Source of the DNA: Escherichia coli
GTDB taxonomy: Bacteria > Pseudomonadota > Gammaproteobacteria > Enterobacterales > Enterobacteriaceae
NCBI RefSeq assembly: GCF_051903065.1
Contig: NZ_CP178442.1
Direction: 5' to 3' (one strand)
DNA: 37,672 nt
Shown: positions 14,946 to 14,979 of the stretch, piece by piece
How positions within the stretch are numbered: the stretch's first letter is position 1
Layout: each line of letters opens with the position of its first letter
The notes under the pieces: model-generated
The model's input: the letters and a program-made list of their open reading frames with translations, nothing else
Databases searched by the model: none
Told to the model about the DNA's origin: nothing
Made by a program: the position numbers and the translations under genes

Positions 14946-14979
14946 GTTAATGCTAATGTATGCATACATTAGCATTAAC
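14946..14979. repeat. perfect 34-bp palindrome gttaatgctaatgtatg|catacattagcattaac
   Basis: Exact dyad symmetry over 34 bp, about 20 bp upstream of the first 420-bp repeat. Confidence 0.6.

Follow-up and report, generated by a model that had tools for sequence, protein, structure and literature searches.

A perfect palindrome on an Escherichia coli IncX4 plasmid is an orphan member of a plasmid-borne palindrome/YadA association

The stretch of DNA analyzed here, a sequence of 37,672 nucleotides from Escherichia coli (assembly GCF_051903065.1, contig NZ_CP178442.1) that is referred to as the window at its full length, is an IncX4 plasmid identical to pYUYZVE78-cfr. Near position 14,945 it carries a long perfect palindrome, and this element is an orphan member of an undescribed association between a plasmid palindrome and the gene of a small protein, YadA, known as PSLT047 in the plasmid pSLT. 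The interpretation we favor, with somewhat better than even confidence and on the basis of sequence comparison, is that the palindrome is a cognate site of the YadA family that would be recognized as a hairpin or cruciform, and that the copy in the window is inert unless YadA is provided by a co-resident plasmid.

The preliminary description of this DNA reported a 34-bp palindrome, which was found exactly where it had been placed. Its self-complementarity gains one base per side, so that the true extent is 36 bp, and the copy matches the 32-bp core of the family, TTAATGCTAATGTAYGCRTACATTAGCATTAA, without a mismatch.
14945-14980: perfect 36-bp palindrome TGTTAATGCTAATGTATGCATACATTAGCATTAACA, with 18-nt arms and no spacer
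14946-14979: 34-bp version, GTTAATGCTAATGTATGCATACATTAGCATTAAC
14947-14978: 32-bp family core, TTAATGCTAATGTATGCATACATTAGCATTAA, no strand assigned, 0 mismatches to the family consensus

The neighbors were also as described, namely a 16-bp palindrome at 14903-14918, which lies upstream at a distance of 26 nt when counted to the 36-bp palindrome and of 27 nt when counted to the 34-bp one, and a long repeat that begins at about 14995-14999. That such a palindrome is improbable by chance was borne out in two ways. The longest perfect palindrome in 300 shuffles of the window measured 12-24 bp and never reached 26 bp, and base composition predicts about 3.5e-6 perfect palindromes of at least 34 bp per 37.7 kb. 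The next longest perfect palindromes in the window are 22 and 20 bp, and no second copy of the element was found there when up to 3 mismatches were allowed. As a single strand, the 76-nt region at 14925-15000 folds with an energy of -33.8 kcal/mol (z = -4.7) when taken as RNA and of -20.5 kcal/mol (z = -5.2) when taken as DNA. The center of the window copy is a symmetric TGCA, a minority variant seen in 21 of 89 distinct combinations of context and core.

The palindrome is widespread on plasmids. A BLAST search with the 36-mer found it on 4321 plasmids in PLSDB, at 14420 places when each site is counted on both strands, and it is present on about 6% of sequenced plasmids. The carriers come mainly from Klebsiella, Escherichia and Salmonella and include IncF, IncFII(K), IncP-like mcr, Salmonella virulence and IncX4 resistance plasmids; most are conjugative, and 1051 are non-mobilizable. 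The 36-mer of the window is 100% identical to copies in IncF plasmids and 97% identical to an IncP-type copy. About a fifth of complete E. coli genomes were positive (1069 of 5426), with a median of 4 matching places, or 2 sites, and about 1-9 sites per genome. Nearly all of these places were on plasmids (3778 of 3824), with the other 46 on chromosomes. No match was found in phages. The hosts that could be identified in a pattern scan of species-representative genomes were Enterobacterales, including Photorhabdus and Erwinia, and the few matching contigs labeled as other taxa are presumably contaminant or plasmid contigs. A metagenome scan found the palindrome in at least 120 stretches. The flanks of the family copies are unrelated to one another right up to the palindrome. 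The window copy is likewise plasmid-borne, intergenic (between a helix-turn-helix (HTH) gene and the long repeat) and flanked by sequence unlike that of other copies, and it almost certainly belongs to this family.

The usual home of the palindrome is a pair of copies around yadA. In locus after locus, two copies 514-555 bp apart enclose a single open reading frame (ORF) of about 160 codons. Among the 224 copies collected, 82 lie just upstream and 84 just downstream of a yadA homologue (166 in all), and 58 are solo. A purine-rich ribosome-binding site lies within the 12-16 nt that separate the end of the upstream core from the start codon, and the downstream core begins -4 to +37 nt from the stop codon, most often at 8-11 nt. 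yadA itself was found on 3405 plasmids at 3924 places, which is about half the count of palindrome sites. The window has a single copy rather than the pair across yadA and encodes no yadA homologue detectable by tblastn, which places its palindrome in the solo class.

In pSLT, PSLT047 is bracketed by copies at 4002-4037 and 4543-4578 of the locus L004, and a published study of this locus (Gonzalo-Asensio et al. 2013) bears on the palindrome. The PSLT047 protein is detectable in Salmonella carrying pSLT, the transcripts of this 489-nt gene reach 740 nt, and a 597-nt antisense RNA, IesR-1, converges on its 3' end (PMC3815029). Both RNAs end around a predicted stem-loop just after PSLT047, heterogeneous 3' ends being seen at the overlap, and the protein level rises when the gene is separated from the region of overlap with IesR-1 (PMC3815029). 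Judging by the coordinates in L004, we take this stem-loop to be the downstream palindrome. The same study considered PSLT047 to be confined to some Salmonella serovars and does not mention the palindrome repeats (PMC3815029). PSLT047 is thus a YadA-family gene between two family palindromes, whereas the window has one palindrome and neither a PSLT047 homologue nor IesR-1. Our literature search found neither the palindrome sequence nor its association with the gene described; only the work on PSLT047 and IesR-1 turned up.

YadA is labeled in databases either by that name or as a 'cytoplasmic protein.' It is an all-helical protein of about 160 amino acids that gave no match in Pfam, NCBIfam, PHROG or PADLOC. 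A profile search of 1.84 billion representative sequences returned just 186 relatives, nearly all of 130-190 amino acids, and none of the relatives scanned has an annotated domain. Most members are basic, with isoelectric points of 8.3-10. Their invariant residues include R47, R50, K56, Y58, K59, R93, G95, Q97 and R109.

Two further features of the yadA loci were observed. The cassettes repeatedly adjoin a gene for a coiled-coil autoregulator of the KfrA/TlpA type or kfrB/kfrC genes, as in the following loci.
pSLT (L004), 2674-3789: tlpA
pMCR_1511 (L031), 3908-4963: kfrC/kfrB
L165, 1619-2504: gene for a KfrA_N protein
In addition, one yadA lineage has two tandem palindromes about 77-83 bp apart upstream of the gene (7089 and 7166 in L058; 2582 and 2665 in L082). 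Their flanks, ATTTGTTTCTGTTGATACAGA ... TCCCCTTGCCACACACAAATCC, are conserved and loosely complementary to each other, and they recur beside several solo copies (L059, L079 and L100). The tandem arrangement and its conserved flanks suggest a larger composite module.

YadA of Photobacterium is only about 37-41% identical to that of Salmonella, yet its gene has the same palindrome core on both sides. The arms there are extended to 48-50 bp, and the extended sequence differs between the two copies while remaining self-complementary. Extension of the stem is general: across 63 independent flank contexts, palindromy continued beyond the core for a mean of 1.49 bp, compared to 0.49 bp with randomly paired flanks, and 0 of 5000 permutations reached the observed value. 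At the outer core positions 1-5, 24 complementary double changes of 8 kinds were counted versus 39 single changes, and the inner positions were almost invariant. Complementarity is also kept through double changes in the solo copies next to the gene for an SOS response-associated peptidase (SRAP). The preliminary suggestion of a cruciform-forming element is consistent with these compensatory changes and context-specific stem extensions across the family.

More distant YadA homologues (E values of 1e-8 to 1e-36), all on plasmid-like contigs, are likewise flanked, on one side of the gene or on both, by palindromes that keep similar distances to it and whose sequence is specific to the lineage. 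Examples are given below.
L165: AGCTATTACATA / TATGTATTAGCT, both sides, same variant
L160: GCGAATACATA / TATGTATTCGC, flanking palindrome
L164: TAATGGATA / TATCCATTA, flanking palindrome
L159: TAAAGTAAACGTA-tgcg-TACGTTTACTTTA, flanking palindrome
L157: CTAATGAATT / AATTCATTAG, flanking palindrome
L162: TTAAAGCTAATGTA..., both sides, same variant
The frame GCnAAT...ATTnGC persists in several distant lineages and the center changes. Divergence of the palindrome together with YadA is the behavior expected of a protein and its cognate site. Because of this co-divergence and of an outer stem that is free to change but stays complementary, the data suggest a hairpin or cruciform whose apical part would be read sequence-specifically. 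The pair beside the center is usually asymmetric (C·A or T·G), and its orientation flips even among close relatives. A strand-specific function of this asymmetric center was considered and rejected, since both orientations were found both upstream and downstream of yadA.

In two solo copies (L043 and L070), the IncFII yadA context is matched on the side of the upstream copy (98% over 438 nt), only a 16-nt tail is left beyond the downstream copy, and yadA is missing. This structure is what recombination of one palindrome with the other would leave. In other copies a familiar flank on one side is combined with an unrelated flank, and the family copies lie exactly at the breakpoints between contexts. 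The preliminary suggestion of a recombination site therefore holds loosely, in that copies sit at breakpoints and loss of yadA leaves solos, but no evidence for a dedicated recombinase was found. The empty site of an IncP-type cassette (L032) has no resident palindrome, and extra non-palindromic sequence arrived there with the cassette. Integron-like insertion into a resident palindrome was rejected on this ground, and integron- or transposon-like insertion in general is disfavored because the empty site lacks the palindrome and target duplications are absent.

These observations can be combined as follows. The palindromic element would be the cognate cis site of the YadA/PSLT047 family, with two copies bracketing yadA in the home setting, one abutting the ribosome-binding site and the other following the stop codon. 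Because the apical 18-22 bp are held constant, sequence-specific recognition is suggested, most plausibly by YadA, and because the outer stem varies only while the arms stay complementary, the working form would be a cruciform or else a hairpin, formed in RNA or in single-stranded DNA. Recombination breakpoints fall at the copies, and in this way solo copies would arise and spread. The IncX4 copy would have come in a 54-bp indel inside an accessory toxin-antitoxin/HTH module. Since yadA is absent in cis, this copy is probably inert, or a passive stem-loop in transcripts of the HTH operon that run toward the leading region, barring YadA supplied in trans. As a perfect copy of the main type, it should be recognizable by whatever recognizes the family.

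The indel was identified by comparison with two relatives, pO177B1 (L006) and pO26_02E060_2 (L007). Both have a homologue of the HTH antidote gene and share the terminator-like hairpin and the 16-bp palindrome with the window, but at the corresponding position they read GATGTGAT / TTCTGGCGCG and the 36-bp palindrome is missing. The difference is a segment that is uniquely placed in the alignment and marks the insertion or deletion boundary of the solo copy.
14936-14989: 54-bp extra segment, AGATGCGTG + palindrome + TAGAGCAGA, absent from L006 and L007
No target-site duplication is evident at this segment. An origin of its 9-nt flanks from the pSLT-type yadA leader or from the SRAP-associated solo context was considered and dropped, because about half of shuffled flanks do equally well in an anchored edit-distance test. 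L007 has a separate insertion of about 255 bp (3084-3338) with a variant family palindrome, TTAAAGC...GCTTTAA, which is likewise in the short interval from the HTH gene to the repeat, at about 230 bp upstream of the latter and at a position other than that in the window. By our estimate, two independent hits within one region of about 200 bp are unlikely and would occur by chance in roughly 4% of cases if insertions fall anywhere in intergenic DNA. The palindrome is perfect in all four IncX4-type variants sampled (the window, L077, L084 and L128) despite several differences in the flanks. This perfection and the second insertion in L007 keep a local function open.

The same comparison answers the first suggestion of the preliminary description, that the palindrome may be an operator of a dimeric regulator, perhaps the neighboring HTH protein. 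That homologous plasmids do not conserve the palindrome had been named in advance among the results that would refute it, and this is what was found: L006 and L007 have the HTH gene without the palindrome, so the protein does not need it, and the main IncX4 lineage is without the whole segment. The idea of an operator for this HTH protein was therefore rejected. On present sequence evidence the palindrome appears unrelated to the adjacent HTH protein, and a site for another sequence-specific protein, of the YadA family, is plausible.

Several observations weigh against an orphan YadA site that is inert here. YadA has no recognizable DNA- or RNA-binding domain and no informative fold match, and its basic isoelectric point is only suggestive of nucleic-acid binding. 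Copies were collected with a pattern that required the inner 22 nt to be present in one or more copies at each locus, so that the invariance of the inner core is partly a product of ascertainment. Selection may not be needed for compensation and stem extension, which could also result from hairpin-templated correction (template switching at quasi-palindromes) or exchange between copies. The asymmetric center points either way with respect to yadA. Among single-arm transitions, those compatible with G·U pairing on the sense strand of yadA are the more frequent (19 versus 7, p = 0.03), although this effect is weak and the events are not phylogenetically independent. Finally, the two independent palindrome-bearing insertions, in the window and in L007, hint that the copy here may be under selection and not inert.

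Another possible explanation, which we regard as a serious minority view, is that the palindrome is a neutral relic with no function outside yadA cassettes, and that the IncX4 copy hitch-hiked and was kept perfect by hairpin-templated self-correction. The lack of yadA in the window, the indel polymorphism among relatives, the main IncX4 lineage without the palindrome and flanks that are uninformative on origin would all be expected of a relic. Such a relic would not be expected to stay perfect in the four IncX4-type variants although their flanks differ, to maintain complementarity through double changes in SRAP contexts, or to be joined by a second, independent insertion in the same intergenic region.

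It is also possible, though we consider it unlikely, that the palindrome acts through its RNA structure alone, with no dedicated protein involved. It would form a 5' hairpin by the ribosome-binding site of yadA and an exonuclease barrier or RNase III site at the 3' end, and we give the same low weight to its extension to the IncX4 copy, which would separate the HTH operon from the genes of the leading region as a barrier or a site of processing. That the palindromes keep constant places in both the 5' and the 3' untranslated region of yadA fits this explanation, as do the stable fold, the compensatory changes with stem extension, the slight surplus of sense-strand changes that are compatible with G·U pairing, and the heterogeneous 3' ends and stem-loop at the overlap of PSLT047 and IesR-1 (PMC3815029). 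It leaves unexplained why 22-32 bp are nearly identical in Salmonella and Photobacterium when the proteins are about 40% identical, and why a lineage-specific palindrome sequence tracks the protein. An intrinsic terminator is not indicated, since a U-tract is absent: no T run follows the palindrome in the window or in 51 distinct contexts of downstream copies, the stem is A+T-rich, and a consensus scan makes no call. In Rfam, nothing at the palindrome reached the gathering thresholds, and the sub-threshold matches were only generic hairpin matches to microRNA precursor models.

A more active version of the YadA interpretation was judged rather improbable. It would make the palindromes and yadA a self-contained plasmid cassette, in which YadA, with a new all-helical fold, recognizes the hairpin or cruciform sequence-specifically and orphan copies are functional. 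YadA from a co-resident IncF, IncP or virulence plasmid might then control the establishment genes of the other plasmid, or the copies might be docking or breakage points that promote the exchange of modules among plasmid backbones.

Less probable still is a mobile element, with YadA as a novel hairpin-specific recombinase or transposase that mobilizes its own cassette and scatters solo palindromes, as RAYTs do with REP sequences, and with the IncX4 copy as a transposed copy or docking site. yadA is bracketed by cognate palindromes that co-diverge with the protein, homology breaks sharply at palindromes in many unrelated contexts, solo copies exist, two insertions occurred independently in one intergenic region, and YadA has an invariant Tyr58 along with several invariant Arg and Lys residues. 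These points are outweighed in our view by the absence of target-site duplications and of constant insertion ends, by the palindrome-free IncP-type empty site to which non-palindromic sequence came along, by a 160-amino-acid all-helical protein without the fold or motif of an HUH, tyrosine or serine recombinase, and by the low copy number (median of 2 sites per positive E. coli genome).

A single-strand signal for conjugative or vegetative replication, such as a primosome or ssi-type hairpin at the inner edge of the leading region, is very improbable. The family is restricted to plasmids, and the palindrome lies 15 nt from a structured repeat of about 425 nt that resembles single-strand promoter or ssi elements and occurs on 1137 mostly conjugative plasmids. 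Most copies, however, flank yadA outside leading regions (near repA in IncFII plasmids and beside tlpA in pSLT), the 1051 non-mobilizable plasmids carry the palindrome as well, and neither a DnaA box nor known ssi motifs were found in it. A single-strand promoter of the Frpo type was not supported either, because the stem of 16-18 bp is too short for both promoter boxes. A promoter scan called no promoter-like site at the palindrome. The best sigma-70 candidate, TTAATG-17-TAGCAT, matches at only 7 of 12 positions, and its putative -35 positions are the most variable ones in the family; this reading was rejected.

Least credible is a dimer-bound operator of the HTH protein (14424-14780) or the XRE protein (16817-17044) that regulates neighboring genes: perfect dyad symmetry and a nearby HTH gene with a match to PF21716 speak for it, but the palindrome is 165 bp downstream of the HTH gene and outside the promoter of its operon, is absent at the corresponding site in relatives with a homologous gene, adjoins unrelated genes in all other contexts examined and is carried by 4321 plasmids, is long for one dimer at 36 bp, and has in the conserved 16-bp palindrome at 14903 a better candidate beside it.

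Comparison with known systems found partial likenesses. Like REP/REPIN-RAYT systems, the family has a short conserved palindrome that is paired around a small gene and dispersed intergenically, with both sequence and hairpin potential kept. RAYTs, however, are HUH/Y1 transposases (PF01797), and the all-helical YadA is without such a domain; REPs are found on chromosomes, where they number tens to hundreds, whereas the YadA palindromes are essentially plasmid-only (46 chromosomal versus 3778 plasmid places in E. coli) with the low site numbers given above, which does not fit high-copy chromosomal dispersal. The pdif modules of Acinetobacter, which use XerC/XerD sites, resemble the family in having short dyad-symmetric sites at the boundaries of small modules in many plasmid contexts. 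The palindrome is instead perfect over 32-36 bp and has neither a spacer of defined function nor the 11-6-11 XerC/XerD architecture; the best agreement was 14/28 with dif, 15/30 with cer, 8/11 with the XerD arm and 7/11 with the XerC arm. The consensus sites dif, cer, psi, Fur, LexA, SlyA and ArcA were all rejected as poor matches.

The attC sites of integrons and their gene cassettes share a hairpin-forming site tied to a single-gene unit, in which for part of the stem structure matters more than sequence. They differ in having RYYYAAC...GTTRRRY ends, extrahelical bases, variable sequence and dependence on IntI. The YadA palindrome ends in GTT...AAC, the opposite order, in some copies only and this is not conserved in the family; its stem is perfect, its sequence is conserved, it lies on both sides of the gene, and an integrase is absent. 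No integron integrase is annotated in the window plasmid, whose sole tyrosine recombinase adjoins parA. Autoregulated DNA-binding proteins of plasmids with inverted-repeat operators, such as KfrA/TlpA and KorA, are similar in that a small basic helical protein stands beside a dyad site just upstream of its ribosome-binding site. Their operators, in contrast, are single sites of 10-20 bp that are not repeated after the stop codon and have no copy-specific stem extension, and in YadA no DNA-binding fold can be detected.

The setting of the palindrome in the window is as follows.
11511-12518, - strand: replication gene
12519-13880: origin region
13884-14406: stbD/relE toxin-antitoxin pair
14424-14780: HTH 'antidote' protein, dnstrm_HI1420-type, with a Pfam PF21716 match
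14903 and 14945: two palindromes (16-bp and 36-bp)
14995-15419 and 17075-17499: two copies of the repeat of about 425 bp
reaching 19139, + strand: genes for a DnaJ-domain protein and an XRE protein, and hicAB
16817-17044: XRE protein
from 19503: ddp1/taxA and taxC relaxase genes
The palindrome thus has an accessory maintenance module on one side and, on the other, what appears to be the inner edge of the leading region. In classical 33-kb mcr-1 IncX4 plasmids (L154, NZ_MK477610.1), compared over 13884-14994 of the window, the repeat abuts the origin region, and the stbD/relE-HTH segment and both palindromes are absent. By this comparison, the segment is an accessory module of a 35-37-kb IncX4 sub-lineage. 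Common ancestry of the stbDE module with the yacAB-yacC-yadA region of IncFII plasmids was rejected, as there is no DNA or protein similarity beyond the palindrome.

The 16-bp palindrome, TGTGTATTAATACACA, occurs five times in the window with 0-2 mismatches.
14903-14918: copy next to the 36-bp palindrome
8352-8367 and 8423-8438: copies on one side of parA
9123-9138 and 9172-9187: copies on the other side of parA
The last four flank a parA/MipZ-like gene (8463-9122) beside the tyrosine recombinase gene. Unlike the 36-bp palindrome, the 16-bp palindrome is kept in L006 and L007 with one mismatch, and because of this conservation it is more likely than the 36-bp one to be a real operator or a site of the centromere type. 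If it is a real site, it is a candidate link between the par locus and the region upstream of the leading-region genes.

The two copies of the repeat are direct repeats with 300 nt that are 100% identical between them, and the repeat is common to the 1137 plasmids mentioned above at 78-98% identity. It contains a sigma-70-like TTGCAA-17-TATTAT at 15329-15357, and its - strand folds better than shuffles as single-stranded DNA (z = -3.5). Both copies stand ahead of + strand genes pointing toward the presumed oriT, and they look like Frpo/ssi-type single-strand promoter elements of the leading region.

Other elements were noted in the window. A 20-bp perfect palindrome, TATCCTTATGCATAAGGATA, at 17572-17591 lies within the ORF at 17456-17797 and shares the center TATGCATA. 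A 22-bp perfect palindrome, GATCGCGCTGGCCAGCGCGATC, is at 2906-2927. The 16-bp perfect palindrome AAAATGTTAACATTTT is found at 10974-10989 and at 19423-19438, the latter in the presumed oriT region upstream of ddp1/taxA. A match to Rfam RF02452 (the Bacillus small RNA ncr1575) at 4529-4746 on the - strand scored 110.7 bits compared to a gathering score of 60. By coordinate conversion it is placed between cfr and the downstream copy of IS26, and this element probably traveled with cfr from a Gram-positive source.

The near-invariant 32-bp palindrome and its orphan protein family form a widespread plasmid pair. For annotation, the lesson is that a palindrome beside an HTH gene should not be called an operator before its distribution has been checked. 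If the palindrome is the cognate site of YadA, a ready test system is at hand, as tagged PSLT047 strains already exist, and resistance and virulence plasmids that share a cell might interact in trans through this pair. Mosaic junctions in clinically important plasmids would in part be accounted for if the copies are hot spots of recombination.

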